A DNA stretch of 62,050 bases, counting the filler. It is 8 parts of 8 records of this genome, joined end to end, with 100 filler letters (N's around TTAATTAATTAA, not from the genome) between each part and the next. Parts side by side here need not be neighbours in the genome. Positions count along the whole stretch, not along the records: positions 14,816 to 25,957 come from SRR31147125_36107; 7 more parts are not named here. One strand, 5' to 3'. Below are positions 7,868 to 54,187 of this stretch, in pieces. The position numbers were made by a program, and so were the translations under genes. Positions within the stretch are counted from its first letter, which is position 1. Each line of letters opens with the position of its first letter. The notes under the pieces are model-generated. The model saw only the letters and a program-made list of their open reading frames with translations, was not told the DNA's origin and searched no databases.

Positions 7868-8607
7868 ATGAGAATAGCCGTTTTTTCCGATGTTCATGCC
7901 AACTATGAAGCGCTTGAAGCATTTATCGAACATGTTTCACAAAAGCGGGTAAGCCACTATATCTGCCTTGGGGATGTGGTGGGGTATGGTGTCAATCCCA
8001 ATCGCTGCATTCGACGGCTCCAAACCCTGCCCGGAATTCGATTTGTTTTGGGAAATCATGATCATGCAGCCATCGGGGAGAAAGGAAAAGAGCGGATGAA
8101 TGGAGATGCGGGAAGCGCTTTAAAATGGACCCAAAACCGTCTTTCCAATCCAAGTGTCTCATTTATAAAAGGAATGAAGGACAATTTCAAACTGGATAAT
8201 ATTTTCTTTTGTCACGCCAATCCCGTGGGGCGATCGGATTGGTATTATATTTCTGAAAAGCCTCATATTTCCCGGACGTTTTTCAAAACTCGGGCCAAAA
8301 TTCTGTTTGCCGGTCATACCCATTCGGCAGCCATGATCACCAAGAAAAATTTTTTTGTACCTATATTCGAAAGCCTCAAAACAAGGCGGTGGTGCCAATC
8401 GCAAAACTCAGACGACAGATTTTCAACTGCGGAAGTATCGGGCAGCCTAGGGATGGAGATCCCAGGGGATCTTATCTCATTTACGATACGGATCGACATG
8501 TTGTAGAGTTTCATCGGGTGGCCTATGACCATGAGGGGGCGGCTAAGAAAATTGTGGCGGCAGGTCTCCCCGAACGATTGGCCCAAAGGCTTTCTACCGG
8601 GCAGTGA
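7868..8607 (+). CDS. Calcineurin-like metallophosphoesterase (YfcE/PPP-like); one frameshift near 8350
   Basis: SDVHAN, LGDVVGYG, GNHD, GHTH, then NCGSIGQPRDGD in the next frame. Adding one T to the T7 run at 8350-8356 gives KKNFFCTYIRKPQNKAVVPIAK. Confidence 0.88.
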
Positions 8608-8615
8608 TTTTTTGC

Positions 8616-9949
8616 CTAAACCCCTTCAGAGGGAAGTGTGTTTCCATTACCGAAATTCGGAATTTTTGCAAGAAGATCCTTTCGAAGGGCGGAAGCATCC
8701 CTGTATCTTTTTTCAAGATTGATTTCAAAACATCTCATAATCACCTGCTCCAACGCCTTAGAGAGGGATGAATCCAAGGTGCGTGGTGGAACCGCCGGTC
8801 TGTTTATATCGATATCCATGGGATAGATGCGGTTGTCCTGATAAAAGGGAAGACGATTGACAGTGAGGATGTAAAGGATGCACCCCAATGCCCACACGTC
8901 ACTGGCAAGGCAGGGCTTGCCTTCAAACTGCTCCGGCGGCATGAAATTCAAAGTCCCCTGACCGGAGGCCCCTTCATTGATCCAGGTAACATCCCTTGCA
9001 CTGCCGAAATCCAGAAGCTTCAAGAGGCCGTTGGGTTTGACCATGATGTTGTCCGGTTTGATGTCCCGGTGCATGATTCGATGATCATGGGCATAGGCGG
9101 ATACCGCCATCAGTTGCAAAAAGAGATTTTCTTTATCTTTAGACGAAATTCCTTTTTCAATCCGTTCCGGCAGCGTGACCCCATTGACATACTCCTGAAT
9201 CAAAATGTATTTATCTCCATCTTTCACCACCTCTATCAGATGAATGATATTTGGATGATACACCAGCCGCTTTAGAACGGCTGCCGCACGCAGTGTGCTG
9301 ATGTTGAGTTCTGGGTTGTGGGGGATTTTGGCGATGGCTTCTCTTTCATTTCCCACCTCACGCACCAACCAGATTTCTCCATCGCCGCCTGTGGCGATTT
9401 TATTGATTGGTTGCCATTTGCTGAAGATGGGCCGTCTTCCCGATCTTGCAAATTGAGATTTTGGGGAAAAAAGCTGAGACCTTCTTGAAGATATCCCACA
9501 ACCCGACGCCAAGTCTCATTTTTAGGCGCATATGGATTCGACGCACTCTTTTGCCGGGTCTGAATAATGGCTTGTCCGCACTCCAACAGCACATAAAACC
9601 GAATGGCAAAGCTCTCTTCATCCAATGGTATGATGATGTAATCATCTGCACCGGCTTTTATATATTGATGAATATTTGAGAGGAGATCATACGGAACCAG
9701 CACCAACAGGGGAACGGGATGGCATAACACACCCTTGAGGCGACGGATGATTTGCACCTGTCGATAGCGATCCTGCTCCACTCGAAGAATGAGAAGACAA
9801 GTATTCATTTGCTTTTGAAGTACTTCATGGGCTTTCAACCCGTGGTTTCGGATGGGGATCGCCTCGATGGCAAATGGACGGGCCAGACGTTGGATGAGTT
9901 GCTCGTCATCTTTCGATAAATTGATCATCATCAAGCTTTCAGATGTCAT
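8616..9949 (-). CDS. Receiver-like domain fused to Hanks-type Ser/Thr protein kinase; one frameshift near 9470
   Basis: N-part AGADDYIIIP (REC-like). C-part TGGDGEIW, AKIP, HRDIKPDN, DFG, PPE, SDVWALG. One extra T in the T6 run joins them as GLSFFSPKSQFARSG. Confidence 0.82.
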
Positions 9950-10176
9950 AGGAATTTCCTTGAAAGGTTGATGTCGGAACCGGGTGAGGATTATTCATTG
10001 AATGAGTTGTTATTTTAACGGTTTCTCAAAAAAAATCAAGGATGTTAAAAATATAGTGGTATAAAAAGTAAATTTATTAATCAGTTGATTTTTAAAAAAT
10101 ATCAGTGTATGGCAAAAGTATTATCTGAGACACTTGAAAATGCTGAGCTGACAATGAAATTGAGGGTGATACAACG

Positions 10177-11241
10177 TTGAAAAAAGATAAATCCGATGAG
10201 ATTTTGAACTGGAATAAGGCGGATATTGAAAGGCGATTTGGATTACCGTCCGGTGGATTCACCACCCCCGGGTGGATAGGCCCCATCATATCGGGAGGAC
10301 TTTTGGCCGGGGCGTTTTGGGTGCTTTTGCTGGGATTGGGACTGATGCCGCAATTAAGTCATCTGTTTGGGCAGGGGTATGAACTTTATCCCATCTCTTT
10401 TTTGACCACAACAGCCATGGTCTTTCTCCTGATTAAGTGGGTAAAGATTCGACTTCAGACAAAGCCCCTCAAACTAAAACCGTTCAACGACTTGATCGCG
10501 TTTTTAAGTAATTGGGATGAGCTGACACCGGAACACGCCAAAGATATCGTGACGGGCATGAGGAAACTGGTGGATGATCCGGATCGATTTATGCTGTTCA
10601 GCCGGATTAAAGAAGCGCTTTCCACATTCAGATTTGTCGGTGTGCCCGAAGACGTTGCAAAAGTGTTGAGAAGCAAATCTGCTGAAGATGCAAAACAGGT
10701 CGATTCCGGATATCTAGTGGTCACCATGGTCATATGGTTGATTCCACTGTTGGGCGTTTCCGGAACAGTTTGGAACTTGTATCTGGGATTTGTTGAAGCA
10801 GGGCTGTTAGGTAATTCCGGTGGGAGTTCCGTATTTTTGGCGCAATCCGGGCAATCGGATGTGATGGATCTTGTTCCGCTTTTTTTATTGAGTTTGGAGG
10901 TGCCGTTTGCCGGAATGGCGGTGGCATTGACGCTTTCATTGCTCATTCAAATTGCGGTAAGCGCTCTGAAAAAGAGAGATTTCATGTTGTTGGATGCCTG
11001 TGATGAGTACTGCTATTTGCATATTACCCAGGGAATTCAGCTCTCATTCGGGGATCGTTTGGAACAGATACGATTTCGAGTGACAAGACGAAGGTCGCCC
11101 AAGGCATTGGATCGACTATGGAAAAGCCTGGAGAATGATGATGTCATGGATGACGAAGAGGCCAGAGATCATCTTTGGCAAAGCTTTGAAAAAGCCCGGA
11201 AAAAGTGTCATCCAGGCGGACGGGCCGATGGATCGGTTTAA
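10177..11241 (+). CDS. MotA/TolQ/ExbB-like membrane protein (degenerate); possibly the N-terminal part of a fusion with 11205-13376
   Basis: Four hydrophobic segments. IWLIPLLGVSGTV resembles the family motif PxLGxxGTV. Confidence 0.65.
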   Translation: MKKDKSDEILNWNKADIERRFGLPSGGFTTPGWIGPIISGGLLAGAFWVLLLGLGLMPQLSHLFGQGYELYPISFLTTTAMVFLLIKWVKIRLQTKPLKLKPFNDLIAFLSNWDELTPEHAKDIVTGMRKLVDDPDRFMLFSRIKEALSTFRFVGVPEDVAKVLRSKSAEDAKQVDSGYLVVTMVIWLIPLLGVSGTVWNLYLGFVEAGLLGNSGGSSVFLAQSGQSDVMDLVPLFLLSLEVPFAGMAVALTLSLLIQIAVSALKKRDFMLLDACDEYCYLHITQGIQLSFGDRLEQIRFRVTRRRSPKALDRLWKSLENDDVMDDEEARDHLWQSFEKARKKCHPGGRADGSV

Positions 11242-13376
11242 CCTTTGTGTTTGTGTTGGTTGTAGTGAGCTCCGGGGCGTCTTATCGGTTGGGGCAATTA
11301 AGCACGGATAAAAGTGAGATAACCCATCAACTCATGCAAGCATTTCAAGCAAACGACTTTTCTCGAATCAGAAAGTTACAAAATGAGATAGAGGCTCAAT
11401 ATGCGTCTCTTTTTTCTGCAATTGAGATGGCGCATTATCGATCGAAAACAAATCAGTTGGAAGCAGGATTGACAGTGCAGAGTAATGCGTTTTACGATGC
11501 CATCCAAAAGCTGGAAGAGATCAAAAATGATCAATTTCAATCGCAATCAGATCCGGAAACCATTGAGACGTTGCTCAACGATGCCAACGCCCATTTAAAA
11601 GTGGCTGAACTTCTTTTTTACAGCCGGGGTAACCCATCAACCGCTACGGCAACAAGTGAAAAGGTAAAACACAACAACCATGCGCAAACCGTTTCAGCCT
11701 CATCTCCTCAACAGCGGTATTCAGATATTGTGACAGCCTGGGAAGAAAAAAAATTCGGTGTCACATCGGAGTCCAAAACTCGAATAACAAATATTTTGGA
11801 ACGTTTAAAGCGTTCGTTTCAGGTGATGGGAGATCCCACCTCACCGGATTTGTCATCCGGAGAAGAGCAGCTGCAACGCATTTCTTCTCTTATTTTTGAA
11901 GGTGCTGCAATCGACAATGTCACACCGGATATGAAAGACGAACTTGAAGCGTTTCGACCTCGTTTGAAATCTCTATTGGAAATTTGGAACAAAAGAAGAG
12001 ATACGCTTTCGTCTCTGTCCAACAGTGAAACATTAGATGGGTATTTTAATAAGCTCGAAGGGTTTCGGCAGACCTTTCCCAATGATGGTGTGAGTGACGC
12101 CATCACCGGAGTTCAAGCACAACTTTATCTTTATCGTCAATTTATTACTGTACCTGAGTTGTCAAAAGAGATTATGTCAAAGCGGAAAGCCGGGGGGGAT
12201 ATTGGAGAGAAATCAGAATCGAAAACAAAAATGGATAAAACGGAAAAGAGTGGTGCCGGCGGAGCGGATGGTAAAAAATCGGGACACAATAATAAGGCTG
12301 ACGGTGCGAAAGGAAAACAGAAAAAGGAGATCGAGTCGGAAAATTTTGATGAAAAAGCGCCGGAAAATTTATTTTGGCAGAAAATAGTCAATGAAAACAG
12401 AATTTTTGAATCTCATTTTGCCCGCTATTTACCGGAAGCGATGGAGAACATCAAACGGATTGAGCAGATTCATTTTTTTACAAATTTATGGGAGTGTACG
12501 GTCAAGAAACCCAATCAGGATCCTGAAACCTGGTATTTTATGGGAAAGCCCACCCAAACATTCATCCGTGGAGTCAAATCTTATGCCGGAGGGGCCTATG
12601 CACCGGCCATGACGGATCTTCAGCCGAAGTTTTCCGAAATGCACGTAGTCACCGTCCATGTTGAAGAGATGAAACCATCGCCCCATTGTCAGTTGGTCAA
12701 GGAGATGATGGGACGTATCGCTGATGACCCGAGTTTGGAACGACTACTGAAAGAGATGCATCAATTCAATAGCCACCCCCTTTCACCCATCTTGAAGTTG
12801 GATGTGTTGAAATATTTCGTAAAACCGTTGACTTTGATGGCCGGTCGGGAACATGCTGAGGAATTGGGAGAATTGGCAGATCTTTTTGAAAAGTCGACCC
12901 TTAAACATCATTGGCTTTGTAACCGACATCCCAAATATGAAGAAGAGAGCGGAAAAGCAACGGCCATTGTCAATGATATTTTGGCTAAATCAAATGGGGT
13001 CGGAGATTACATGCTCAAGATGAAGCTGGGTACCATTTCTTTGGATCGATTCCCGAGGTGGATCGGGTATGTCGACTTGGAAAACTCAGGCAAACTTCAT
13101 TTCAAATCCGGGGAAAGGCCCAAAGAAGTTTGGGTGCTTCGTGACGCTTCTCCCCCTCAAGTTCTGGTCGCTAAAGAGTCTCTCTCCGGGGAGGCAATGA
13201 TGAGCTATTCAGATCATGGCGCATATCTGCCTGGGGAACCTCTTTTTGCACCTGGGGGGGAGAAGACCACTTGGGAGGTAATTGACGATTTGGCTGCAGA
13301 CCTCCGGGAAATTCCGGGACGGCGGGATGGGAGTTGGCCTTTGGGCTGGCCGGTCAATGCCAGGTTTGAAAATTAA
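11205..13376 (+). CDS. Large hypothetical protein with one N-terminal TM helix, helical/coiled-coil body and a K/G/E-rich linker
   Basis: 723-aa ORF; TM WIGLTFVFVLVVVSS; weak GTG start overlapping the upstream ORF at an A5 run. Confidence 0.75.
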   Translation: MSSRRTGRWIGLTFVFVLVVVSSGASYRLGQLSTDKSEITHQLMQAFQANDFSRIRKLQNEIEAQYASLFSAIEMAHYRSKTNQLEAGLTVQSNAFYDAIQKLEEIKNDQFQSQSDPETIETLLNDANAHLKVAELLFYSRGNPSTATATSEKVKHNNHAQTVSASSPQQRYSDIVTAWEEKKFGVTSESKTRITNILERLKRSFQVMGDPTSPDLSSGEEQLQRISSLIFEGAAIDNVTPDMKDELEAFRPRLKSLLEIWNKRRDTLSSLSNSETLDGYFNKLEGFRQTFPNDGVSDAITGVQAQLYLYRQFITVPELSKEIMSKRKAGGDIGEKSESKTKMDKTEKSGAGGADGKKSGHNNKADGAKGKQKKEIESENFDEKAPENLFWQKIVNENRIFESHFARYLPEAMENIKRIEQIHFFTNLWECTVKKPNQDPETWYFMGKPTQTFIRGVKSYAGGAYAPAMTDLQPKFSEMHVVTVHVEEMKPSPHCQLVKEMMGRIADDPSLERLLKEMHQFNSHPLSPILKLDVLKYFVKPLTLMAGREHAEELGELADLFEKSTLKHHWLCNRHPKYEEESGKATAIVNDILAKSNGVGDYMLKMKLGTISLDRFPRWIGYVDLENSGKLHFKSGERPKEVWVLRDASPPQVLVAKESLSGEAMMSYSDHGAYLPGEPLFAPGGEKTTWEVIDDLAADLREIPGRRDGSWPLGWPVNARFEN

Positions 13377-14815: not shown

Positions 14816-15157
14816 AAAAAAGTATATCCTGTCTGCCATGTTCTGCATGTACTGCGGCCATGGACAGGGCCCGCAAGGACAGGCTGCTGGTGGTGATTCT
14901 TGCCTTTCTGGCCCTGGGATTCCTGGTCCGGGGAGAATGGGAGCGATAGGCAAATGGCAAGGGTGTTCTTATCCCTCCAGACCAGGGTCAGATCAACCCA
15001 GTCCGCCCTTATTTGATCTCATTTTTCTCAACCGGGTTTATTTTCTTCGGCTTTGGTCTGCCGCCCCTAAATTGGCCCGGCCTGCCCCCTGGCGGATACA
15101 AAAACTGATATTACAGCATACCGTGCATGTGAATAAAGCACCATATAACCAAGGTAG

Positions 15158-15173
15158 TGGCCGGATATTTGCA
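15158..15173 (+). promoter_or_regulatory. Candidate sigma-54 (-24/-12) promoter upstream of the GNAT gene
   Basis: TGGCCGGATATTTGCA = GG-N10-GC with TGGC/TTGCA ends, about 200 bp upstream of ATG 15371. Confidence 0.4.
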
Positions 15174-15370
15174 TAATATTCATATTTCAAACCATGCTGC
15201 CAACTTTTTTACATGACAGCGAAGAAGGCCATCAAGTGGAAGCGTATTTTTCCCTGCTTGAGCCAGAGGCAGAAATCGTGGTATGTTTAAACCTTCATGC
15301 CCGGATATTATTAACGAAAACGGGTTAAATCATTTTCTCGTAGTCTTAAAATTGAAAGAACAGGTTTTTA

Positions 15371-15970
15371 ATGAAACAAATCCGCCTTGCCACCACTGAA
15401 GATTCCCAGGACATATCCAAACTGAGGATCGGTGAGTTCAACCGGGCCAAAGACTTTGCCCTGCTTATTCCCCAGCGCCTGAAGTGGTGCCGGACCGATG
15501 AATCCAACCATGTGCTTGGGATCTGGAACAAGAAAAATCAGGTAGTGGCCACCTTGCGCATTATGCCGGTTAATGACAGGGAGAAGGCGGCAGCGGTTAT
15601 TGAAGCCGATGTCCCTGATAGTGTGGGCTTTCCCGCATATGTATTCAACAGTGCCGCCACAAGGAAGGATTATAGGAAAAAGGGACTGAATCAACTCCTG
15701 CGATACTACGCCATCAGTTCAGCCAAAGCATCCGGGATCCTAAACCTTTTGAGCCCAGTGTACCAAAGCGCTCCCCGGATTAATTTCATGAAAGAACTGG
15801 GATACGCCTGCAATGAGATGACCCGGTCATGGCAAACCAAGCTTGCCCCCAAAAGCCCCAGAATGCTCTGTGTTCTGGAGGCGGACAAGTTCAGCCGGGC
15901 CCTTGATATCATCCGCCGCTCCATTCCGGAGCTTCTTGCTGAATACCCCTGGCAGGGCCCCACTATTTAG
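15371..15970 (+). CDS. GNAT-fold acyltransferase (FeeM/LuxI-like N-terminal pattern)
   Basis: Acyl-CoA motif AATRKDYRKKGL, FMKELGY; KLRIGEF...D..NHVLGIW...VVATLRI. Confidence 0.7.
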   Translation: MKQIRLATTEDSQDISKLRIGEFNRAKDFALLIPQRLKWCRTDESNHVLGIWNKKNQVVATLRIMPVNDREKAAAVIEADVPDSVGFPAYVFNSAATRKDYRKKGLNQLLRYYAISSAKASGILNLLSPVYQSAPRINFMKELGYACNEMTRSWQTKLAPKSPRMLCVLEADKFSRALDIIRRSIPELLAEYPWQGPTI

Positions 15971-16985
15971 AGGGGGTTGCCGGCGCCATCTCCCGATAGA
16001 TATTATCTGCAGCCCCCAGAATATCAATGGTGGGATTATAGCCAACAATGGTGGCGGCCTCAATGTTCAGAGAAAAGGAAAACTCCTTGCCCACATCCAT
16101 GGGCAGGGTGGCAAGTTCCGTTCCGTTAAGAACCTTAACGGCATACTCGGCACACTGGGAACCGAACTTTTCCTTGTGCCGCCCGATACCGATGACCAGG
16201 CCTTTTCTGATATAAATGGGCCCTCCTGCACTGGGCAGGCTGTGCCGTTTAAAACAGTCAAAAAACAGGTCAAAATGCTTGTAAAAGGTATTTGAAATCT
16301 GGACATAGAATACATCCACCTTAGGGGCCACCGCGTTAAGGGCCTCTTGAATATTTTTCCGGATGACCTCTTTGGAATACCGCTTTTTATTCTCATCCCT
16401 CAGGGCAAACCCCTGTGAAACAAATTTAAACCCGGCCTTTTGGCTCAGTTCAGTCACCCTTGCCACGGCGCCCTCGTGGCTGGGTGAGCCTTTAAGATAA
16501 ACCATTCCAATGCTTTTAAAATTGATGAGTTCATGGAGCAGATTAATGCCGATACTCACATAGTTTCGGGTTTCCACACCGGTGTAGTTGCTGCCGGAAC
16601 TCTTCCAGTCGGTTACAATCCCCGAGGTTTCGGGGGCACCAACGTCTGTGAATATGATGGGGGTATCTTTAACCTGCCGAATCATCCGCTGGGTGGACTG
16701 GGTGCCGACGCTAAAGATCAAATCAATGTCGGTGCGATCCTTTAATTCATCGATAAAGGTATCCAAAGCCTTTAGGTCACCTTCTGCATTATAATATTCC
16801 AGAGTTGTCCGGTCCGAAATGTCAGACTGCTTTATTCCGGTAACAAATCCCTTGAGGGATTGTTCAAAGGGAAGAAATGTCTGGTGCCTCACCGTCATTA
16901 TCCGGTATCTTTCCTTGGCTGTGGCCAGGGTGGAAAACAACACCAGAACCACAACCGCTGCCACAATATACTTTGTTTTTTTCAT
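15963..16985 (-). CDS. ABC-type substrate-binding protein (ABC_sub_bind-like), no ATPase or permease nearby
   Basis: Signal peptide, YNAEGD, DLIFSVGTQS, PIIFTDVGAP, NYTGV, KVLNG...LP...LNIEAA. Confidence 0.85.
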   Translation of the reverse strand: MKKTKYIVAAVVVLVLFSTLATAKERYRIMTVRHQTFLPFEQSLKGFVTGIKQSDISDRTTLEYYNAEGDLKALDTFIDELKDRTDIDLIFSVGTQSTQRMIRQVKDTPIIFTDVGAPETSGIVTDWKSSGSNYTGVETRNYVSIGINLLHELINFKSIGMVYLKGSPSHEGAVARVTELSQKAGFKFVSQGFALRDENKKRYSKEVIRKNIQEALNAVAPKVDVFYVQISNTFYKHFDLFFDCFKRHSLPSAGGPIYIRKGLVIGIGRHKEKFGSQCAEYAVKVLNGTELATLPMDVGKEFSFSLNIEAATIVGYNPTIDILGAADNIYREMAPATPSK

Positions 16986-17033
16986 ACCTTGATTCCCGCA
17001 GTTTCCCTTATCTCAGATCTTAAATTAATGATC

Positions 17034-19046
17034 TTAGGTTAATGATTTTGGGTTATAAAAAATTAAAAATATCAGGTTCCCGGCAATACACAATGCCCCG
17101 CCCATGACAATGGCCGTTGTAATTCCGTAAAGGGAGGCAAAAAATCCAAAGAAAACCGGTCCCAGACTGCTGCCGATGCGCTCAAAGGAAAAATACACAG
17201 ACAGGGCGGTACGGCTGCCAATGGTCTTAGCGGTCCGGGTTTCAATCAAAAGGCTGGACTGGGCCGGGAAGGTAATGCTGTTGGAAATGCCCAGCACCAA
17301 AAGGGAGAGGATAACAAACAGGGCCTTTGCCCACACCGGCCCTCCTGCAAACAGGTAAAACAACATCAGCACCACCCCCACGAGGATATTGGATCCCACC
17401 ACCGAGGTTTTACTCTGCTTAATCTGCTTGATCCTCCGATTTAGCATCCCCCCAAACAACACACTTGGAATACTGTAAAACATCATGATCCTTCCGATGT
17501 CTGCGAACACAAAATCCTGTTTCAAAAAAATAGGCACAGCATAGTAGAAAAATCCGATAAAGGTAATCCGGGTAAAAATGCCATGGACAAAGATACAGAT
17601 CAGGTTGACGTCCTTGATACCGTATCTGAAAAACCGGATCAGCCCCCCATCGTTTGCCGCAGCCCCCTCCTCCTTCTGCTGACTGCCGACAACCTTGTCC
17701 GCAAGGATCATATAATCAAACACATAAATTAAAAGAACAATGGCCGCTGCACAGAAAAAACAAACCGGTAAGAAAAATACTCCACCAGAATACTGCCGAT
17801 GATGACACTGCAAAAAAGCCCCCGGAAAAAGACGCCGTAAATCCGGCCAGGTGTGAGGCCCTGTTTTTTTCACTGGCATGTTCAATGATGAACTGCTTGG
17901 TGTAAATAACAATAAAGGAAAACCCCACAGCGCCCAGTACCCGGCCGGCAATGAGCTGGACAATGTCATTGGAAAATCCGCAAAGCACAAGCCCCGCTGC
18001 CGTGCACAAGGTGCCCAGGCCAATGGCGTAATCCATGTTGACCCATCGCTTGAACTGCTGGCTGCCCATAAACAGCATAAAAACAAATACCGTAATCATA
18101 TAGCAGGTAATGGGCAGGGCCATGAGAATTTCCTGGGAGAACAGCCCGGTCAGAAAGGTCCGGGTCTCCAGCAATTCCTTGGAAAACAAAGGCAGAAAAC
18201 TGGCTTGGAGATTGGCACCCAGAAAAAAGAGAAACACCACCGGCCGAATCTGGGAAGGGTCCACAATCTTCTTGGGCACCGTCCGGATATCAATCATCTT
18301 ATCAAGCACCCCATGCTGGTGCCGAATTTGCTTTAAAAATGCCTGCCTGCCGTAAAAGATCCGGGATAAAAAGACCCGGGCCATGCTGTTCAGATCTCCC
18401 TGACCCGGTCCCCCTGCCGGACACGCATCACCACAAGCCCTCGGATCCTTCGGAAAAACAAATGAAACTCCTCGGGGACGGCAAAGGTATGGTAGGGATT
18501 CATGTGCCGGATCATGGAATTAAAGGTCAGCAGGGTTTGTTTAAAGGGAAGCGTCACAAGCTTTGACGAAAAGAATCGGATGATCTCGTAGGTAATGATC
18601 AGCCCGGCGATGACAATGGTGAACAAATCAAATAGCATGGCTGCCGTGCGTTTACCCAGCTCAGGGCTCAGGCCAAGACGGATATGCCCCACGACGCTGT
18701 CTTCTGAGCGAACCGGGATTTCTATGTCCCTTATGGACGGGGCCCCCTCCCCATCGGCGGCGTAGAGGACCTTGTCCCCCTGAATCACCTGGATGCATGA
18801 CAGCTCCGGGGTATCCTCCAGAATAGAGGTCAAAAAAGGAGTCATCCCCCCCAAAGAGGAGATGGAGATACCAAAACCCAGGGCATATTCCAATTCCTTT
18901 TGAATGACCGTCCCAAGTTCTTTAATTTGGGAAACACTCTGCTCCTCATACTCTTGTTTGAACATGGCCACATTGGAGTACATGTACAAAAGATGTGAAA
19001 AACAGACAAAACCGAGAACAATGATTATAAGGCGCTTGCTTTGCAT
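17034..19046 (-). CDS. MFS transporter with fused N-terminal periplasmic sensor-like domain; three frameshifts (near 18400, 17815, 17757)
   Basis: ORFs 18390-19046, 17716-18384 and 17034-17760 join by single-base changes, giving ...GDLNSMARV... and SGGFFCSVIIGSILVEYFSYRFVFFCAAAIVL. MFS motifs LIAGRVLGAVG and FERIGSSLGPV. Confidence 0.75.
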
Positions 19047-19066
19047 ATTAAGGAATCCTCGGGCCT

Positions 19067-19861
19067 TTAACTGGCATTCATGTGTTGCATAAGGTCCTTT
19101 TCCACTCTGACCATTCCATCCTCGCCGTCCTGTGAGGCATCATCCATCTGATCATACAGGTCCTTGTTTTCCAAAGAGAGCCACTCTGCCTTTTTCAATT
19201 TCCGAAAGGTCTGTTCCGCATGATCCAGGGCAGACAGATCAATGCCCTCTTTTTTAAGCGTCTCAACCTCCCCCCGTGCGGCAAGGTCGTTAATCCGGTC
19301 AATATAGGCCTTGTAAGGCCGGTTGATATACCAGGTCAAAAGGCCGTAGAGCAAGGGCAGGGAAAAGGCCAGAATCAACAGGAAGTTAAAAACCGAACTG
19401 CGGATAAGAAAAAGCAGTTTGTCCTTTGTCTCCCGGTAAGAGACCACCATCACCAGATTCCCCCGGATACCCTCCCTGTCTGATAAGGGGATGGAGAGGG
19501 TATAGGATTCCAGATTTTTTTCCCGCTTGAACTTAGGAGACAGTTCAAAGGTGTCTGAGGCGCCCTTTTTCCTGGCCGAGTACACCACCTTGTTGTGGGT
19601 GTCAATGACATGCAGATTATCAATATCAGCGGGAATGATCTTCTTGATCAATTTATCATAGTTGATCTGGGCCAAAGGCTTTCCGAATATGAGCGAGATA
19701 TTGAGCTTCCGCCGGATCTCATTGCCGATAATCCGGTATCGTCTCAGGTTGTTTTCTTCCAAATTGCTGGCAAGGAATCCTATTTCCAGAAAACAGTTCA
19801 GTCCCTGGACAAAGAGGATAATCAAAAAGGTGATAATCATAATCCTGGACCTAAGCTTCAT
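19067..19861 (-). CDS. Two-TM membrane protein with periplasmic sensor-like domain and no recognisable output domain
   Basis: TM - about 140-aa periplasmic region - TM - short cytoplasmic tail. ATG 19861 overlaps the SpoIIE stop. Confidence 0.75.
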   Translation of the reverse strand: MKLRSRIMIITFLIILFVQGLNCFLEIGFLASNLEENNLRRYRIIGNEIRRKLNISLIFGKPLAQINYDKLIKKIIPADIDNLHVIDTHNKVVYSARKKGASDTFELSPKFKREKNLESYTLSIPLSDREGIRGNLVMVVSYRETKDKLLFLIRSSVFNFLLILAFSLPLLYGLLTWYINRPYKAYIDRINDLAARGEVETLKKEGIDLSALDHAEQTFRKLKKAEWLSLENKDLYDQMDDASQDGEDGMVRVEKDLMQHMNAS

Positions 19862-21875
19862 TTTTCCCCTCATATTTGATCATCAGCATGGCAATATCGT
19901 CGTATTGAGGGGCAACATCGGCAAAGGCCTTGAGGTCCTCTTTGATTGTGGTCACTGTTTTTTCACAACTGGTCCCGGTCAGATCAGATACATTATCAAT
20001 CAGGGTCTGCTCCGAATAAAATTCCTCTTTGGGATTCTGGGCCTCGGTCACCCCGTCTGTATACATGAACACCGCCTCCCCCGGGGCCAGGGTCATGGAC
20101 AGCTCCTTGTACGGGATTTCATCCATAATGCCCACCACAGGCCCGGAATTCTCCTTGACGTATTCGCAGTCCCGGGCCGTTGACACCAGGATGGGGGGAT
20201 TGTGACCGCCGTTGCTGTATACAATCTGACCGGTGGAAAGATCAAGGATGCCGATGAAAAGGGTGACAAACATGGACTGGGGGTTGTCGCTGCTGATGGT
20301 GTCATTCACCTCGATCATAATATCGGCCGGACTCTCATGCTTAAAGGCGGACATTTTGATCAGGGTTTTGGTAATGGCCATCATCAGGGCCGCCGGCACC
20401 CCTTTGCCGGAGACATCTCCAATGGTGAAGCAGAGCCGGTCCTCTCCCACGAAAAAGAAGTCGTACAGATCCCCGCCCACCTCTTTGGCCGGTTCCAGGG
20501 AGGCATAGATATCCAGGTCATCCCGTTCGGGGAAGGGAGGGAAAATTTTAGGCAGAAGACCCAGCTGGATTGCCGTGGCAACGTTCAACTCCCCTTCAAT
20601 ACGCTGATTCTCCGCTGTGGTCTCAATTAACTTACGGATATTGTCCTTAAGCTGTTTTTTCATGAAAACAAAGGCCTGGGCCAACCGCCCCACCTCGTCA
20701 CGACTGGTCTCAGCCAGCCAGGCCATATAGGGATCTTCCTCCTCCTCCCGGGTCAGGTCGGTGGATGAAAATTCTTTTACCTTTGAAGCCAGAACATTGA
20801 GGGGCCTGGACATTCTGGACACCACCCAGGCGGTAAACAGGATGGAGCAAAGCAGAATGATGCCGATCAAAGTGCTTTGTTTGGTGGCAATGGCCTTGGC
20901 CGGCTGTTTGATCTCTGCCTCGGGTACGGTCACACCGATATACCAGCCCAGGGGTCTAAAATAAGAGATATATGAGATCATTTCCCGGTCTTGAAACAGG
21001 GGACTTGTATAGGCCAGGAATCCGTCCTCCCGGGCGGCCGCAGCCATGTCCTGCACAACCGTATTTCCGCTGCTCCCGTTTTTTGCCTGCTCAAAGGCCC
21101 TGGCCAGAGTCGGATCGCCAATGGCCAGGACCTTTGAATCTCCGTTAAAAAGAAAGGCAAAGCCGGTTTTACCGATGGTGATCTCCCCAAAGGTTTGGTT
21201 CAGGGTGCTGACGATATGATCCAATGCCCTTTGGGCCTCGGTCTCAATGGTGCCGATATCCACCATGGCCCCGGCCACCCAGTTCCAGGGGCCAAACTTC
21301 TGGGTACAGATTAATACCTTTGACACCTTGTCTTGGCCGGGCGCCTTCCAGTTCACCACGTTGAAAACAGGCTCCCGCCCGTTTGAAGCAGCCGTCACCT
21401 CGGCCATGGTTCTGCGTTTCATGTCCTCAAATTCGCCGATATTAAACCCCAGCAGTCCCGGGTTCGGGTGGGCAATAATGGACAAATTATCATCGGCTAT
21501 AAAAAGGGTGCCAGAGCTTGTCGGGCCAGAACCGGACACCCAGTCCCTGACCATCTGGCGGGCGGTGGCATCGGGCAGGGACGCGCGGCGGACATATCCA
21601 TCCTGCTGATTGATCATCTGGACCATCAATCCCACCCGCTCCTCCAATGCCGTCTTATAACGGGAAACCGAATAAATCTTGTCGGTGATCAGGTTGTTGT
21701 ACTGCCCCTTGATGTTCAAATCGATCAGGGACAGCACATGGCGGGACATCCGATCCTGCTGGGCCAGCATGGCATTTCCGATCTCTTTGTTTGAAATGGA
21801 GATAAGAATCACAGCGGTAATGACCATGATGGAAAGAATCAAGGCAATAATTTTGGACTTCAATGAGGTAAACAT
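19851..21875 (-). CDS. Cache-HAMP-SpoIIE (RsbU-like PP2C) membrane phosphatase
   Basis: IIAHPN and PWNWVAG / PLGWYIG Cache motifs, HAMP DEVGRLAQAF, PP2C motifs GGDLYD, GDVSGKG, YTDGVTEA, DDIAML. Confidence 0.93.
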   Translation of the reverse strand: MFTSLKSKIIALILSIMVITAVILISISNKEIGNAMLAQQDRMSRHVLSLIDLNIKGQYNNLITDKIYSVSRYKTALEERVGLMVQMINQQDGYVRRASLPDATARQMVRDWVSGSGPTSSGTLFIADDNLSIIAHPNPGLLGFNIGEFEDMKRRTMAEVTAASNGREPVFNVVNWKAPGQDKVSKVLICTQKFGPWNWVAGAMVDIGTIETEAQRALDHIVSTLNQTFGEITIGKTGFAFLFNGDSKVLAIGDPTLARAFEQAKNGSSGNTVVQDMAAAAREDGFLAYTSPLFQDREMISYISYFRPLGWYIGVTVPEAEIKQPAKAIATKQSTLIGIILLCSILFTAWVVSRMSRPLNVLASKVKEFSSTDLTREEEEDPYMAWLAETSRDEVGRLAQAFVFMKKQLKDNIRKLIETTAENQRIEGELNVATAIQLGLLPKIFPPFPERDDLDIYASLEPAKEVGGDLYDFFFVGEDRLCFTIGDVSGKGVPAALMMAITKTLIKMSAFKHESPADIMIEVNDTISSDNPQSMFVTLFIGILDLSTGQIVYSNGGHNPPILVSTARDCEYVKENSGPVVGIMDEIPYKELSMTLAPGEAVFMYTDGVTEAQNPKEEFYSEQTLIDNVSDLTGTSCEKTVTTIKEDLKAFADVAPQYDDIAMLMIKYEGKNEA

Positions 21876-22189
21876 GGATCGGCTTCTTTTATCCTAAATT
21901 GTCTTTCCGGGATCTCTTTGCGCCAGGATGAGAGCTTCGGGGCGACGTTTAATTGTAAAAACCTGCGATCCAAGTTATATCTGAACCGGTTTCCTATTTT
22001 CAAGCACTTAATTGTTTTTTGACCGAATAAGTGAAAAGGGGGACAAAGGCGATGCACGCTTTATGATTTCGCCCGAGCTATATGAAAAAAATTATGAAAA
22101 AAAATCCCCCTCGAAATCGACGCATTCCGGGGAAAAGGCTATTGGGGAGATTAGAAAAAGGATGGAGAGAATTCTGCCAGGGGAAAAGA

Positions 22190-22831
22190 TCAGCTTTTTG
22201 TCTGCCGGGATTTATAATATGCCGCCACCCCCATTAAACCGAAAATATAGCCAAGTCCCCCCATGACATCGTTCACAGAGGGGCCTTTATCTTCCATGTC
22301 TGCCAATATTTTCATCATGGGTTTTAACTTCTTATTCAAGGATTTGTCCACGGCCCGTTCAACCATGGCCTCAATCCTTGCCTCACCCAGGCTGGACGCG
22401 GTAAGGGATGTCGCGGGAATTTCCCCGGCCGGCGCGTCAGCCGCTGCCGGAACCGTTGTCCCCACTTGGGTTTCGTCGCTGGAAGGTTCTTTTCCTGTTT
22501 CCTCTGATAGGTCCTCTATGGGAATTTTCCACTCTCCCTTATGACCCATTCCGGCAATGAGTTCAATGCGCATGGCACTTTTTTGGGGAATGATATATGA
22601 AAACTCACCATTGACATCTGTCCGGGTACGCAGCAATTCATTGCCCCGGTCATCCCAGACGATGATCTCGGCATTTTTTGCCCGTTTTCCCCCGCTGAAC
22701 TTGCACTCTCCCAACACCTGGTTTCCCTCTACCCAGGCAAACACCGTGACTTTGTGCCCCCAAGCCGGGCCGCTGAAAACCAGGACAAGAGTCAGGGCCC
22801 ACAGGAGCCTGCCAATACGTCTTGAGTTCAT
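22190..22831 (-). CDS. Periplasmic membrane-anchored NikL/CbiL-like accessory protein of Ni/Co uptake
   Basis: Signal peptide then HKVTVFAWVEG, transthyretin-like RTDVNGEFSY, GMGH, C-terminal TM MGGLGYIFGLMG. GGGGAG RBS before ATG 22831. Confidence 0.7.
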   Translation of the reverse strand: MNSRRIGRLLWALTLVLVFSGPAWGHKVTVFAWVEGNQVLGECKFSGGKRAKNAEIIVWDDRGNELLRTRTDVNGEFSYIIPQKSAMRIELIAGMGHKGEWKIPIEDLSEETGKEPSSDETQVGTTVPAAADAPAGEIPATSLTASSLGEARIEAMVERAVDKSLNKKLKPMMKILADMEDKGPSVNDVMGGLGYIFGLMGVAAYYKSRQTKS

Positions 22832-22845
22832 ATTCTCTCCCCTCC

Positions 22846-22879
22846 GGCCCCAGTGCCGCCAAAGGGCGGCACTGGGGCC
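22846..22879. promoter_or_regulatory. Perfect 15-bp GC-rich hairpin inside the operon
   Basis: GGCCCCAGTGCCGCC-AAAG-GGCGGCACTGGGGCC. No U-tract in the transcribed (-) direction. Confidence 0.6.
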
Positions 22880-22889
22880 TGGGTCTTTT

Positions 22890-23669
22890 TTATTTTGTCT
22901 GCCAGTCCTCAAACTTTACCCAGATGACGGCGCCCAGTTCCACGCTTTTTTCCTGCCCCTCCAATTTGAGGGTAAAATCCGCCTCGTTCAAAGCGGCAAA
23001 TCCCCACCACCCTGATTTGGGAGCGGCATAGGTAAACACACCGTTGGCATCAGCCTTGATGGTCTGGGTCACCATGTAATCCGTGGGGGCTTGGGAGTGA
23101 CCGTCTTCATTATAGTATTCCACTTCCACCTCAGCATAGGGCACGGGGTTACCGTCCATTTTCACAATGCCCTGGAACACATTGCCGGTATACTGGGCAA
23201 AGGGCTTGGCCAGGGGAACGATCTCGGTTTTCAGGCCGATCTCCGCATCCCATCCCTCATCATCGCCAAAGGAAGTGACCACGGTTTTGGTATAGTGGAT
23301 GATAAAACAATCTTCTGCAGGTTCCCAATAGGGCACAGGCTCCATGTAAAACATGTAGACCCCCGGCCGCTTGATTTTATAATCGGTTTTCCAGGCCTTG
23401 TGGTTCATCACCTTTGCCTGTTTCAGGGTACCCAGCAAATCCTGGGATTCACCATTGGCCATCACCGAAAACACCTTGGGCGTACCCAGTTCCATTCCGA
23501 TCCCCTCAAAGGGATGGGAAAAAGAGGCTGTAATCTGGATGGTTCTTGCATCATCCTGCATCACCATATTATCCGAAGGGATGACCATTCCGTAATGGGC
23601 CTGGGCTGAGAACGCGGCAGCACCAACAATAAACACAACACAACAAATTGAAATTATAGCTTTTTTCAT
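22890..23669 (-). CDS. DUF4198 periplasmic protein (Ni/Co uptake-associated)
   Basis: Signal peptide, mature N-terminal [33 protein letters not shown]. Confidence 0.85.
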
Positions 23670-23941
23670 TATCCTACCCTCTCCTTAGTATCATGTATAG
23701 ATCCTATAATAGACCGCCTTTAACGGCTATTATCCCTTGTCACAACCTTCATGGCAGGATTGGTATAAATAAAACAGGTGTACTGACGTGTATGACAGGC
23801 TTCGTGCCCGCGGTTAGATGTAAAAGAGACTTACACCAGAACCCGGCCCGAATCAATAAAAAAATACAGGATCCGGCCAGGGCCGAAATCAACTGACTGC
23901 AAGGCCTTAGGGTTGAAACCGCCCTGAAAAACGCCGGACAC

Positions 23942-24442
23942 TCAGGAGGCAGCCATCCCCTTATGGGTATTAACCAGACCCTTTCTGGCAAAGAGGTGAA
24001 AATAAATATCTGCAATATAGACCACCCCCAAAAGCCTGCCGTCTTCCAGCACAGGCAGCCTGTGGTACTTGTTTTTCACCATCCGGTCCAGGATAGCCAT
24101 CAGATGTTCATCCGGAAGGGCCCCCACGATTTCCGTGCTCATGACCTCTTGGATTTTCTTTTTAACCAGCTCCTTTTTGCAGGTTTTCACCAGGCCGATC
24201 CAGGAGACATCCCTGCCGTCCACCCCGTAGTTCAGGAACCCGGGCCTCAGGTGATAAAGGATGTCAAACATGGTGACAATACCCACAAACCGGTTCTGGT
24301 CATCCACCACCATGAGGCTGGTGGTCTTATCCCCGGTCTCCCGGGTCCTGCCGCAGAAAATCATCTTAATGGCGGTTTCCACAGGTTCGCTGGCCTTAAC
24401 CGTGTCAAACTCCGTGACCATAATCTCTTTTGCAAATATCAT
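23942..24442 (-). CDS. CBS-pair domain protein
   Basis: AKEIM, LMVVDDQNRFVGIVTMFDIL, RLPVLEDGRLLGVV. Start chosen at ATG 24442 after an AAGGA RBS. Confidence 0.85.
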   Translation of the reverse strand: MIFAKEIMVTEFDTVKASEPVETAIKMIFCGRTRETGDKTTSLMVVDDQNRFVGIVTMFDILYHLRPGFLNYGVDGRDVSWIGLVKTCKKELVKKKIQEVMSTEIVGALPDEHLMAILDRMVKNKYHRLPVLEDGRLLGVVYIADIYFHLFARKGLVNTHKGMAAS

Positions 24443-24589
24443 TGGGTTTCCTTTCCCGGCATCCGCAGGATACGGCCGGTGCAATCTATTTTAAAGGGGG
24501 TGTATAAATATGGCATAATTCAAGATGATACAAGTGATTTGTTAATTTCAAGGCGACCACAGCGTTTTTCGCCTGGGAAAAGATGACTG

Positions 24590-25224
24590 CTAAGTCGCTT
24601 TATTTCTCAGGCGAAGTATTCCAAAGCCAAAGGCTATAAAAATCGTTCCAGATACGCGGTTAAACCATATGGCCCTGCGTCCCTTTGTAAACCATTTTTG
24701 AACGGATCGAGCACCCATTGCGTAACCCAATAGAACAACAAAAGAATAGAACATAAATGTTGTTGTTAAGATAACAAACTGACCCATGACAGGCTTTGAC
24801 AAGTCAATGAATTGGGGGAATAATGCTGTAAAAAATATAATGGCTTTGGGGTTAGAAATGGCAACCAAGAGACCATGGAGAAATGATTTGCGACGCTGTT
24901 GGTAAGTTTGATCCCGTTCAATGGAGGCTTCAAAAATATTGACGGGGACCTCCATTGCCGAATCCCCAGGTAAATTAAATAGATGGCTCCGACTGCTTTT
25001 AAATTCACAAACAAAACCGTCGAGGTCTGCAACACGGCACCCAAGCCTAGAACAGCGGCACCCGAGACGATGAAGATCCCCACAATGTTGCCCAGAGAAG
25101 AATATATGGATTCACGGAATCCATGCATGAGACTATTTGTTATTGATAGAAGCACAGCGGGACCGGGGCTGATCACAGCGATAAGAGCAATCCCTGAATA
25201 TACCAACCAAGTAGACAATTCCAT
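24590..25224 (-). CDS. LysE/RhtB family exporter; one frameshift near 24947
   Basis: SPGPAVLL, GAIYLIYLG, SNPKAIIFFTALFPQF. C4 to C5 restores WRSPVNIF. Confidence 0.88.
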
Positions 25225-25329
25225 AAATTCACCTTAACCTGATGAAAGTTAAATGGTATTTTGATATCTGAATTTAACCCATGTCCTGAATCAAAGCCGG
25301 GGTGTCAACATCCCTCTGGACAGCCTATT

Positions 25330-25957
25330 TTATATCCGGATCTGCCCGGTAAAGGCAAGGGTGGCAGGGCCGGTCTTAAAGATATGGTTGGTTTCCCGGT
25401 CCCAGCGGATGGACAGGTCCCCCCCGTCCAGATGGACAATGGCCTCATTGCCGGTCCGTCCGGTCAGGCTGGCCGCCACAAGGCTGGCGCAGGCCCCGGT
25501 GCCGCAGGCCAGGGTGATGCCGGCCCCCCGCTCCCAGACCCGCATCCTGAACTCTTTTTCAGAAATCACCTGGACGAACTCCACATTGGTCTTTTCCGGA
25601 AACCGGTGGTGAATTTCCACGGCCCTGCCCTGACCGGCCAGATCCACGGCATCAATATTCCCCGAAAAAACAACGGCATGGGGATTACCCATGGACACCG
25701 GCGTCACCTGTATCGGGCCGTCCGTGGTTTCAATATTTTCCTCCAGGGCCAAGGACTGATCCGAGACAAAGGGGATCTGTGAGGAATCCAGCACAGGTTC
25801 CCCCATATCCACACACACAGACCCCACCTGCCCCTCTTGGTCCAGGCTCAGCCGTGGCACCACAGTGCCAGCCAGGGTTTCCACCTGCATCTGCTCTTTG
25901 TTCAGGATGCCTTTGTCATAGAGGAACTTTGCAAAGCAGCGCATGCCGTTGCCGCAC
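25330..25957 (-). CDS. dapF: Diaminopimelate epimerase (5'-truncated)
   Basis: CGNGMRC, SMGNPHAV, NVEF, RVWERGAGITLACGTGACA. Confidence 0.96.
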
Positions 25958-36430: not shown

Positions 36431-36550
36431 TTACAGGCATGAATGAAAATTTGAAATACTCTCTCCTATTTGTATAACATTCATATGATCTTCAAGCCGA
36501 TAAAATAATCTCTCTGCCCTTATAAACAGTTTACTTTTGATCAATTTCAG

Positions 36551-38014
<1,464 letters not shown>

Positions 38015-47354: not shown

Positions 47355-48498
47355 CTATTTTTCAACCGAAAATTTATAAATCGACTTTGTCTGGTATGTT
47401 TCTCCCGGATTTAAGATAATAGATGGAAAGACTTCTTGATTTGGAGAATCAGGAAAATGCTGCGTTTCCAGAGCAAAAGATTCGCGGAAGTTAAAGGTTT
47501 TGCCCAACTTACCAGTATCTGATCCATCGAAGAAATTACCTCCATAAAACTGAATGCCGGGTTCTTCAGTAAATACTTCCATTTTTACACCAGTTTTGGG
47601 AGAAACCACTCTGGCAGCCAAAGTCATTCCTTCGTTGCCTTTGTTTAGTGCAAAATTATGGTCGTAGCCCATTCCATTTTTAAGCTGTAGGTTGCTTTCT
47701 TGCTGATCTAAATCCTGCCCAATTGCTTTTCCATTTCTGAAATCAAAGGGCGTTCCGTCAACCGTAACATTTTCTCCCAACGGAATCAAAGTTTCATCAA
47801 CAACCGTAAATTTATCGGCATTTAAGGTAAGAATATGGTCATTAATGGTTCCGCTTGCCTCGCCTCCCAAATTAAAGAAAGCATGGTTGGTTAAGTTTAC
47901 AGGCGTGCTTTTATCGGTAATGGCTTTGTATTTCATTACCACTTCATTTTTTGCAGTTAATTCGTATTCAACTTCCACACTTAAGTTTAGGATAGCCCAT
48001 TTCGCCATCTTTTGAAAGGTAGCTTAAAACTATTGATGTTCCGTTTACCGATTTTACCTCCCAAACCTGATTATGAAAACCTTTAGGACCACCGTGCAAA
48101 TGGTTGGGGCCGTTATTTAATGGCAGCGTATAAGCCACACCATCTAACTCGAACTTACCTTTGGAAATTCTGTTTCCAATGCGTCCGATCAAAGCACCAT
48201 GATAGGCTTCGTTGGCTGCCAGGTAATCGTCGATACTTTTAAAACCCAACACAACATCGGTCATTTCTCCATTTTTACCGGGAGTGCATAAACTTACAAT
48301 ACGTCCACCAAAATTGGTAACTGCCATGTTTATATCCCCATTTTTTAAGAAATATAGATTTACGTTTTTTCCATCAATATCTTTTTGAAAATCTTTTGCA
48401 TTAAGTTCACAACAAGCTTTTTGTTTAACGTTTGTAGTGCACGAATAAAGAATGCTACCTGTAAATAAGATTAGGATAATGTTTCTGATTAGTCTCAT
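47355..48498 (-). CDS. galM: Aldose 1-epimerase (mutarotase), lipoprotein; one frameshift near 47990
   Basis: [36 protein letters not shown]. The conserved GYPGNL needs two missing bases. Confidence 0.9.
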
Positions 48499-48550
48499 AA
48501 TGTAAAGTTTTGGCGGAAGACAGGTAATTGATGACCAATGTCGTCCAATA

Positions 48551-53954: not shown

Positions 53955-54073
53955 ATACCATACCTTTCTAATCGTATTCACTTCGATTAAATACTTTCAC
54001 CATCATTAAATTCCAAGGCGTTTGCTTATTTCCGACAAGTATGCTTTTTTTAGACTGGCTTCTTTGTCCGGAG

Positions 54074-54087: not shown

Positions 54088-54187
54088 TTTTTTCACAATC
54101 TTTTTCAGGTATTCATCTGAATCAGAACTGTAAAATCCGGTATATTGATTTTAAAATAGCTTAGTTTAAAATATAACAGAGAATCAA

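Follow-up and report, generated by a model that had tools for sequence, protein, structure and literature searches.

The window analysed in this study is a stretch of DNA of 62,050 nucleotides, filler included, and one of its contigs carries a five-gene cassette that is conserved in sulfate-reducing bacteria and resembles the Bordetella btr locus in gene content. The genes encode a membrane PP2C/SpoIIE phosphatase, a protein with two transmembrane (TM) segments (2-TM protein), a sensor-fused transporter of the major facilitator superfamily (MFS), a substrate-binding protein (SBP) of the ABC_sub_bind family and a GNAT acyltransferase. We propose, at a probability of about 0.45, that this btr-type cassette serves to make, export and sense a modified amino acid and feeds a partner switch of a STAS protein and an anti-sigma factor. 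The 2-TM protein and the N-terminus of the MFS are homologous Cache modules, which are fused in many relatives. The cassette lies on an 11.1-kb contig (positions 14816-25957, SRR31147125_36107) and our analysis covered the contigs of the window. Its genes are the following.

19851..21875, minus strand: membrane PP2C/SpoIIE phosphatase of 674 aa with the order TM-dCache_2-TM-HAMP-SpoIIE, a BtrU/RsbU-type architecture (Pfam)
19067..19873, minus strand: 2-TM protein of 268 aa with two TM segments, one predicted periplasmic domain of the sCache/PAS fold (structure model) and no Pfam match
17034..19046, minus strand: sensor-fused MFS (TM, Cache-like domain, TM, linker, MFS core) in four frame segments, BtrO-like by gene content
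15963..16985, minus strand: ABC_sub_bind periplasmic binding protein of 340 aa with a TrpX-family fold and an N-terminal hydrophobic leader, BtrN-like by gene content
15371..15970, plus strand: GNAT acyltransferase of 199 aa (PF00583, E 1.5e-4), convergent and with an 8-bp overlap with the end of the SBP gene

An earlier note on this DNA had described four tightly packed genes on the minus strand. The overlap of the first two genes and the gaps of 20 and 48 bp were found again and the assignments of the phosphatase (Cache-SpoIIE) and the SBP (ABC_sub_bind) were confirmed by Pfam, but the MFS gene is not one open reading frame and the convergent GNAT gene had been overlooked. A cassette of four genes is too small, as a fifth gene, that of the GNAT (6/6 genome loci, 10/11 metagenome loci), is steadier than the phosphatase.

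Conservation of the cassette in close relatives

A scan of 185,579 genomes (GTDB) with an alignment of the 2-TM protein revealed six loci, all in Desulfobacterales according to their titles. They encode the MFS (6/6), the GNAT (6/6), the SBP (5/6) and a co-oriented phosphatase (4/6) as well as RsbW (4/6), STAS (3/6) and a class III cyclase (3/6). The absence of ABC ATPase, ABC permease, STAS and anti-sigma genes from the flanks, on which the earlier note had built, holds for the genes scanned on the 11.1-kb contig, but of these genes RsbW and STAS are present beside many of the relatives. The phosphatase of the window is 60-64% identical to the co-oriented gene in loci L001, L002, L003 and L005; in L006 the phosphatase is a divergent paralogue with 37% identity and L004 has none. 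In a metagenome scan anchored on the MFS we obtained 11 loci, which are partly redundant as several apparently come from one organism. The 2-TM protein, the SBP, the GNAT and the phosphatase were each present in 10/11 of them, the misses being contig ends, together with RsbW in six and STAS in five, and in four loci the phosphatase was relocated behind the GNAT. The neighbourhood survey, which the earlier note had named as a check, bore out that the synteny is conserved.

A third scan was anchored on the GNAT and found nine copies in 8/401 Desulfobacterales genomes. Five copies are located beside the 2-TM protein and the MFS, six have a close SBP homologue, and a phosphopantetheinyl transferase (PPTase) follows the GNAT in three. 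Among the four copies without MFS, three follow an EamA transporter, one in the order EamA-GNAT-SBP-hybrid kinase (L075). No phosphatase was present in the eight newly fetched GNAT-anchored regions, and in L068, L069 and L072 the set of 2-TM protein, MFS, SBP and GNAT occurs with no phosphatase nearby. The phosphatase is the looser, least constant member of the cassette. Because it is often absent from the loci, we regard the 2-TM protein, MFS, SBP and GNAT as the stable core.

Two further arrangements were seen among the close loci. In the Desulfotignum loci, a class III cyclase that is small and soluble and has a HAMP-like N-terminus (L001:6882-7799) shares the orientation of RsbW and lies divergently to the phosphatase; it is a possible output of the switch. 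L006 harbours a second cassette divergent from the first (L006:689-9678) with a paralogous Cache-SpoIIE protein, an ornithine-racemase-like enzyme, a second SBP, a Ddl-like ligase, a formyltransferase and a SulP-STAS-cNMP transporter, and genes of the type VI secretion system (T6SS) type lie on its other side. The five close genomes contain at most one FHIPEP gene (3/5), and VipA was present in 1/5.

The 2-TM protein and the transporter share Cache modules

The earlier note had taken the 2-TM protein for a sensor without output. Our results do not agree with this, as the protein corresponds, as a separate chain, to the first of the two Cache modules in tandem-sensor MFS proteins. When 1.84 billion representatives were searched with a profile, 187 matches were obtained, 150 of them listed and 148 of these new. 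At least two sensor modules were fused to an MFS core in 43/148 representatives among the matches listed, in proteins of 790-1240 aa whose repeats were counted by a simple rule. Since the homologous module is fused to an MFS in many relatives, the 2-TM protein is not a receptor lacking an output, and an independent 2-TM receptor was rejected in view of these fusions. The comparison of the 2-TM protein with the N-terminus of the MFS by hhalign (probability 81, E 1.2e-5, 185 columns) points to the same homology. The structure model, built from 69 sequences with a predicted local distance difference test (pLDDT) score of 88.7, suggests the layout of a single Cache sensor, in which a PAS-like alpha/beta domain is placed between two TM segments. 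When the model was compared with solved structures, the periplasmic domain matched the sensor domain of WalK (Z 12.2, root-mean-square deviation (rmsd) 2.3, 125 residues aligned), followed by LuxQ (Z 10.1) and chemoreceptor Cache domains. Matches to sCache_3_2 in distant relatives fall under the cut-off. For the 2-TM gene, 19861 is a more probable start than 19873, because the homologues begin there and a purine-rich site lies upstream. Four TM-Cache-TM modules in tandem were noticed in the MFS proteins P0065 and P0085, which are 1176-1240 aa long.

The MFS gene of the window is interrupted by three frameshifts near 18400, 17812 and 17756-17762, as located by tblastn with full-length homologues; two are within T6 runs and one is beside G runs. 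In 15/16 longer homologues the MFS is a single protein of 668-688 aa, and the remaining one has 503 aa. The pieces in the window are 55-72% identical to intact homologues and the aligned segments have no in-frame stop. The frameshifts are likely assembly errors, because the relatives are intact, other genes of the window are split likewise and the breaks fall at homopolymers. Among close relatives the full MFS core is conserved at 61-72% identity. Nearest to the family profile (A4) among solved proteins are NorA (E 3.5e-19), EmrB and VMAT, which suggests a core of the DHA-type drug:H+ antiporters. Moreover, NCBIfam gives the middle piece a weak match with symporters of aromatic acids (E 0.0018), no better and no worse than its EmrB match. 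In a tree of 24 rows, calculated from the last 400 residues or fewer, the window groups with the split forms of Desulfobacteraceae (100/99) and the fused forms build one clade (100/99). As the deeper forks are weak, we claim no direction of fusion or fission.

The binding protein and its predicted docking

The SBP matches ABC_sub_bind (PF04392, E 3e-29), and its score against the TrpX family NF041285 is 88 bits, far under the cut-off of 390. It is related to the solved proteins 6hni, 3lkv and 3lft with detectable sequence similarity across most of the chain, and several motifs common to the three solved PF04392 proteins are altered in its clade. The ligands of all three are aromatic amino acids, namely Trp, Tyr and Phe, as listed in Table 1 of PMC10443332 and in PMC6816091. 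Only 3-7 PF04392 matches per genome were counted in five relatives with genomes of 3.5-5.8 Mb, and yet such a protein directly follows the MFS in 5/6 loci. Therefore, the adjacency of SBP and MFS is more than chance. The SBP sits between the MFS and the GNAT in close loci. It might have paired with an ABC permease elsewhere, which the earlier note had named as the observation that would speak against its proposal, but in close loci the SBP is not flanked by one. No ABC permease family was detected among the neighbours scanned, a subset of all neighbours, and the arrangement is not that of TrpX-type ABC uptake. An orphan SBP of a distant ABC transporter was rejected, as the SBP is kept beside the MFS across phyla.

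To describe the contact between these proteins, a three-chain model was built from the 2-TM protein (residues 5-195), the N-terminus of the MFS (1-175) and the SBP (25-335) with no use of alignments. It scored 0.52 compared to 0.14 for the best control, in which the 2-TM chain was replaced; at least 96% of the contacts agreed between runs and the pLDDT of the partners was at least 84. In the docking benchmark the mark was reached by 51/78 solved complexes and 2/108 mismatches, and scores of 0.60 or lower comprised 5/78 solved complexes and all four passing mismatches of 180. The model hints weakly that the SBP docks on the Cache pair formed by the 2-TM protein and the MFS N-terminus. Of the docking proposed in the earlier note, the part in which the SBP contacts the MFS and the 2-TM protein at their periplasmic domains received weak model support. 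One obligate complex that includes the phosphatase is doubtful, because the phosphatase is the least constant member (0/8 GNAT-anchored regions, 5/14 distant loci).

The acyltransferase and the phosphatase

The structure model of the GNAT (pLDDT 85.3) was compared with solved structures. Its top match in Foldseek is BjaI (TM score 0.68), and in the VIA comparison FeeM comes first (Z 15.7, rmsd 3.0, 169 residues aligned), tied with generic GNATs. In the N-terminal half R19 and W39 are invariant and D43 is nearly so, which was noted as a likeness to FeeM/LuxI synthases. Searches of the PDB with profiles of the GNAT alignment returned nothing under E 0.3. The GNAT is a candidate for a signal synthase or a signal-inactivating acylase. 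That it is a chance neighbour of the cassette was rejected.

The phosphatase comprises dCache_2 (residues 40-322), HAMP (350-410) and SpoIIE (478-668; PF07228, E 1e-48) domains with TM segments at 9 and 334. All four catalytic motifs (GGDLYD467, DVSGKG487, TDGVTE606 and DDIA659) are intact; they were scored with patterns that we take to be the metal-binding Asp motifs of SpoIIE phosphatases. The STAS proteins of four related loci retain the SSAGLR motif, the serine of which is presumably the phosphoacceptor.

The wider family of sensor-fused transporters

Searching with the alignment of the fused proteins matched 17/401 Desulfobacterota genomes. Three matches are plain MFS proteins of 410 aa (G147, G178 and G248), none with an SBP nearby, and were left out of the family counts, which leaves 14 distant loci. 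The SBP is encoded in 11 of these, the phosphatase in five and STAS together with RsbW in two. A named amino-acid-modifying enzyme is located beside the MFS or the SBP in 8/14 loci (four near-identical loci among them) and an unnamed open reading frame in five more. The enzymes of the eight loci are Ddl-type ligases, formyltransferases, racemases and DapF plus GNAT. In detail, and with further phyla included, this enzyme slot is occupied by Ddl-type ligases in L026, L031 and L006, formyltransferases in L006 and the L029-type loci, racemases in L006, L035 and Azospirillum, a Glu-Cys ligase in Aureimonas, and DapF and GNATs in L033 and Azospirillum. A racemase or a Glu-Cys ligase was found in the family loci L006, L035, L038 and L076.

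Secretion genes are frequent neighbours. Type III secretion system (T3SS)-type export genes adjoin L033, L035 and L043, and T6SS-type genes adjoin L027, L006, L063, L064 and a Vibrio locus. Similar arrangements were found in annotated records. The MFS, Glu-Cys ligase, SBP and SpoIIE protein are encoded together in Aureimonas, and a racemase, SBP, MFS, GNAT and cyclase in Azospirillum brasilense Sp7. On plasmid pDV of D. vulgaris, the SBP-MFS pair is located beside a CesT chaperone and the SpoIIE gene lies within the T3SS cluster. One Azospirillum lipoferum match is without these neighbours. Across phyla, the core of SBP and sensor-MFS is stable, and the adjacent enzyme and the output (PP2C, cyclase or kinase) swap.

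Two unnamed families were also observed in these loci. One with about 510-590 aa directly follows the fused sensor-MFS (L037:15223-17007, L041:3599-5152, L035:10238-11755 and L043); it has no Pfam or NCBIfam match and is a candidate for a new enzyme in the synthase slot. The other, with 415-431 aa, is located between the MFS and the SBP (L027:10846-12093, L028:10932-12227) and likewise has no match in Pfam or NCBIfam. Furthermore, the locus L029:243-11958 and the similar L030, L032 and L036 combine the fused sensor-MFS with two SBPs, DUF697, a protein containing an ABC ATPase, an SPFH protein, a formyltransferase, a D-Ala-D-Ala dipeptidase and adjoining thioesterase and PPTase genes. Genes for SPFH, PPTase or DUF697 are found again in L068, L069 and L072. 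These neighbours and their recurrence hint at a link to products of the nonribosomal peptide synthetase type.

Proposed mechanism and alternative explanations

In the mechanism that we propose, the GNAT would N-acylate an amino acid or amine and the MFS would move the acylated product out of the cell. Export is suggested because the family profile is nearest to efflux antiporters and because EamA takes the place of the MFS beside the GNAT. The SBP may then capture the periplasmic product and, while docked on the Cache pair, gate or report transport. The dCache_2-HAMP phosphatase might read the same metabolite, either directly or through the SBP, and would dephosphorylate an RsbV-type STAS protein, whose gene lies next to the cassette in relatives and would here be located outside this contig.

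Several observations weigh against this proposal. The GNAT is convergent with the cassette and not co-transcribed with it, no FeeM or LuxI Pfam match was found for it, and its lead for a FeeM/LuxI-type fold over generic GNATs (Z 15.7 vs 15.6) is too small to break the tie. The SBP is missing from L004, L041 and L042. The phosphatase is absent from all eight GNAT-anchored regions fetched and from 9/14 distant loci, and a close homologue was not found in G746 or G507 (2/5 genomes checked). A pass of this grade for the complex is more often wrong than right without a prior. The MFS copy of the window is itself frameshifted. In the MFS core of the wide family no acidic column reaches 80% conservation, several such columns being present in the close alignment, and the motif A loop is degenerate in the clade of the window. 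Coupled export is therefore not assured.

The same components could also serve uptake. In such a system, the SBP would hand an aromatic amino acid or amine from the environment to a sensor-gated MFS importer, with a logic similar to that of tripartite ATP-independent periplasmic (TRAP) transporters, the GNAT and the other enzymes would process or detoxify it, and the phosphatase would report the supply. The fold relatives of the SBP are uptake proteins for Trp, Tyr and Phe, no other partner accompanies the sensor-MFS of the wide family as constantly as the SBP (11/14 loci), the middle piece of the MFS matches aromatic acid symporters weakly but as well as EmrB, and the docking score fits equally well. 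However, the family profile of the MFS is nearest to efflux antiporters, EamA replaces it beside the GNAT, and most of the enzymes encoded nearby form bonds (ligases, acyl- and formyltransferases) and are not catabolic. We consider uptake rather unlikely.

A non-transporting MFS that acts with the 2-TM protein as a co-receptor, and with the liganded SBP switches an adjacent phosphatase, cyclase or kinase in one membrane complex, seems unlikely. It comes near to the view of the earlier note. The lack of a conserved membrane acid in the wide family and the degenerate motif A in the clade of the window would suit such a transceptor, as would the overlap of the phosphatase and 2-TM genes and the exchange of outputs between PP2C, adenylate cyclase (Azospirillum) and hybrid kinase (L075). 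On the other hand, the full MFS core is conserved among close relatives, and L068, L069 and L072 keep the set of core genes with no phosphatase nearby. It is quite unlikely that the three frameshifts are real and that this organism is losing the transporter of a cassette which is otherwise as described for the family. Three frameshifts in one gene with four intact neighbours, and no STAS or RsbW gene beside the cassette, are in line with decay. However, two of the shifts lie in T6 runs and one beside G runs, the pieces are as similar to intact homologues as given above with no in-frame stop in the aligned segments, and LysE on the same contig as well as the aldose epimerase, GH2, MMPL and kinase genes on other contigs are split in the same way. 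We prefer the proposal in which a modified amino acid is made, exported and sensed by the cassette.

The contig and the remaining window

The window is a concatenation of unrelated contigs. Its eight contigs with 39-61% GC are joined by N44-12 bp-N44 spacers, which lie within 5495-55077. The surroundings of the cassette are as follows.

14816..25957, no strand assigned: contig with the cassette, N spacers at both ends; upstream the unrelated NikL, DUF4198, CBS, a frameshifted LysE and a partial DapF

A scan for promoters and terminators gave counts close to those of shuffled sequence (10 vs 8.9 and 12 vs 9.7) and was uninformative. Single-base frameshifts split many genes of the window, namely LysE (24590-25233) on the cassette contig and the aldose epimerase (47358-48555), GH2 (36509-38012), MMPL (51688-53996) and kinase (8616-9949) genes. 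Because so many genes are broken in this manner, findings of split genes from this assembly are suspect. On another stretch (7868-13376) a sensor kinase and a metallophosphoesterase are encoded together with a frameshifted Ser/Thr kinase, the N-terminal part of which is receiver-like, and opposite to these three lie a MotA/ExbB-like gene and a gene for a protein of 723 aa that has no match in Pfam. A regulator of the LuxR type, which contains an autoinducer-binding domain, is encoded at 54170-54937 on a separate contig, with no link to the cassette shown.

Comparison with known systems

The SBP belongs to the same Pfam family (PF04392) as TrpX, CD0873, VC_1101 and SP1069. It differs from TrpX-type proteins by its 88 of 390 bits, the altered motifs and the lack of an adjacent ABC permease or ATPase. 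For the GNAT model, FeeM and the LuxI-family synthases BjaI, RpaI and LasI are the best or longest structural matches. Nevertheless, identity to these synthases is 8-16%, Z values do not separate them from generic GNATs, and the protein has an RxxG stretch similar to motif A of GNATs. In contrast to LuxI systems, no cognate LuxR is encoded beside the GNAT.

Docking of a periplasmic binding protein on the Cache/PAS periplasmic domains of a receptor is known for LuxP-LuxQ of Vibrio. LuxQ was among the fold matches of our 2-TM model. In the cassette, docking is predicted to take place on a Cache pair that is part of an MFS transporter, and the output would be a PP2C phosphatase and not a histidine kinase. 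The general principle of SBP-stimulated receptors has been described in PMC10443332. A phosphatase with a periplasmic sensor that acts on a STAS protein, as we propose for the window, is also found in the RsbU-RsbV1-RsbW system of Chlamydia trachomatis. PMC8256260 reports that this switch responds to a small metabolite, alpha-ketoglutarate, and describes it with no binding protein, sensor-MFS or synthase in the parts consulted.

The closest precedent is the btr locus of Bordetella (BP2226-2234). According to Table 3 of PMC7498569 it encodes the STAS protein BtrV, the kinase BtrW, Alr, the MFS BtrO, the SpoIIE phosphatase BtrU, the "ABC transporter" BtrN and the Glu-Cys synthetase BtrM. The earlier note had known of no characterised system with this layout, but a precedent for it is given in that table. 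BP2231 is a putative exported protein and BP2228 an alanine racemase in supplementary rows of PMC6627887 and PMC7828420, respectively. BtrU, BtrW and BtrV are needed for type III secretion by a mechanism called unresolved in PMC7498569, which lists BtrO, BtrN, BtrM and Alr as of unknown function; the Btr and chlamydial partner switches were described in PMC8256260 and PMC4615762.

In both the btr locus and the window, a membrane SpoIIE/PP2C phosphatase, an MFS and an exported ABC-type protein are encoded together, a likeness in gene content alone. The amino-acid-modifying enzyme of btr has its counterpart in the GNAT, and STAS and kinase genes lie beside many relatives. Moreover, a btr-like racemase or Glu-Cys ligase accompanies relatives of the window MFS, which also have T3SS genes as neighbours (L035, L043, L033, pDV and Aureimonas). 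However, btr has an alanine racemase (Alr) and a Glu-Cys synthetase (BtrM), whereas the window has the GNAT in that slot and neither enzyme. Among the genes scanned on the 11.1-kb contig no counterpart of the STAS and kinase genes of btr was seen; such genes do occur in close genome loci (RsbW in 4/6, STAS in 3/6). While btr controls a T3SS, the contig has no adjacent T3SS or extracytoplasmic function sigma factor, and in close relatives the cassette lies next to a class III cyclase or T6SS-type genes. Unlike btr, the window has a split 2-TM protein and a one-module MFS. By analogy, we infer that the window cassette may work like the btr cassette, with two btr features missing (the racemase/ligase and the adjacent T3SS).

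The conserved cassette has a precedent in the btr gene content. On three of its features, namely the MFS with Cache modules in tandem, the exchange of enzyme and output and the predicted docking of the SBP, literature searches, with subscription journals outside their coverage, revealed no publication. Gene content of the btr type recurs in Desulfobacterota, Alphaproteobacteria and Vibrio, with an MFS carrying tandem Cache sensors and an interchangeable enzyme and output. This offers a testable model of an MFS coupled to a binding protein, and of the signal that acts upstream of a secretion-controlling partner switch, in the harmless laboratory hosts Azospirillum brasilense Sp7 and D. vulgaris Hildenborough. 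It is conceivable, though doubtful, that all these loci form one widespread class of cassettes for cell-to-cell signalling. In this class, a swappable enzyme (GNAT, Ddl-type ligase, racemase, formyltransferase or Glu-Cys ligase) would make an amino-acid-derived signal, the MFS would export it, the TrpX-fold SBP would read it on the Cache pair of the transporter, and a swappable output (PP2C partner switch, cyclase or kinase) would often govern a T3SS or T6SS. The btrM-btrN-btrO-alr genes of Bordetella would belong to this class, and if this is true, the input to BtrU would be named.

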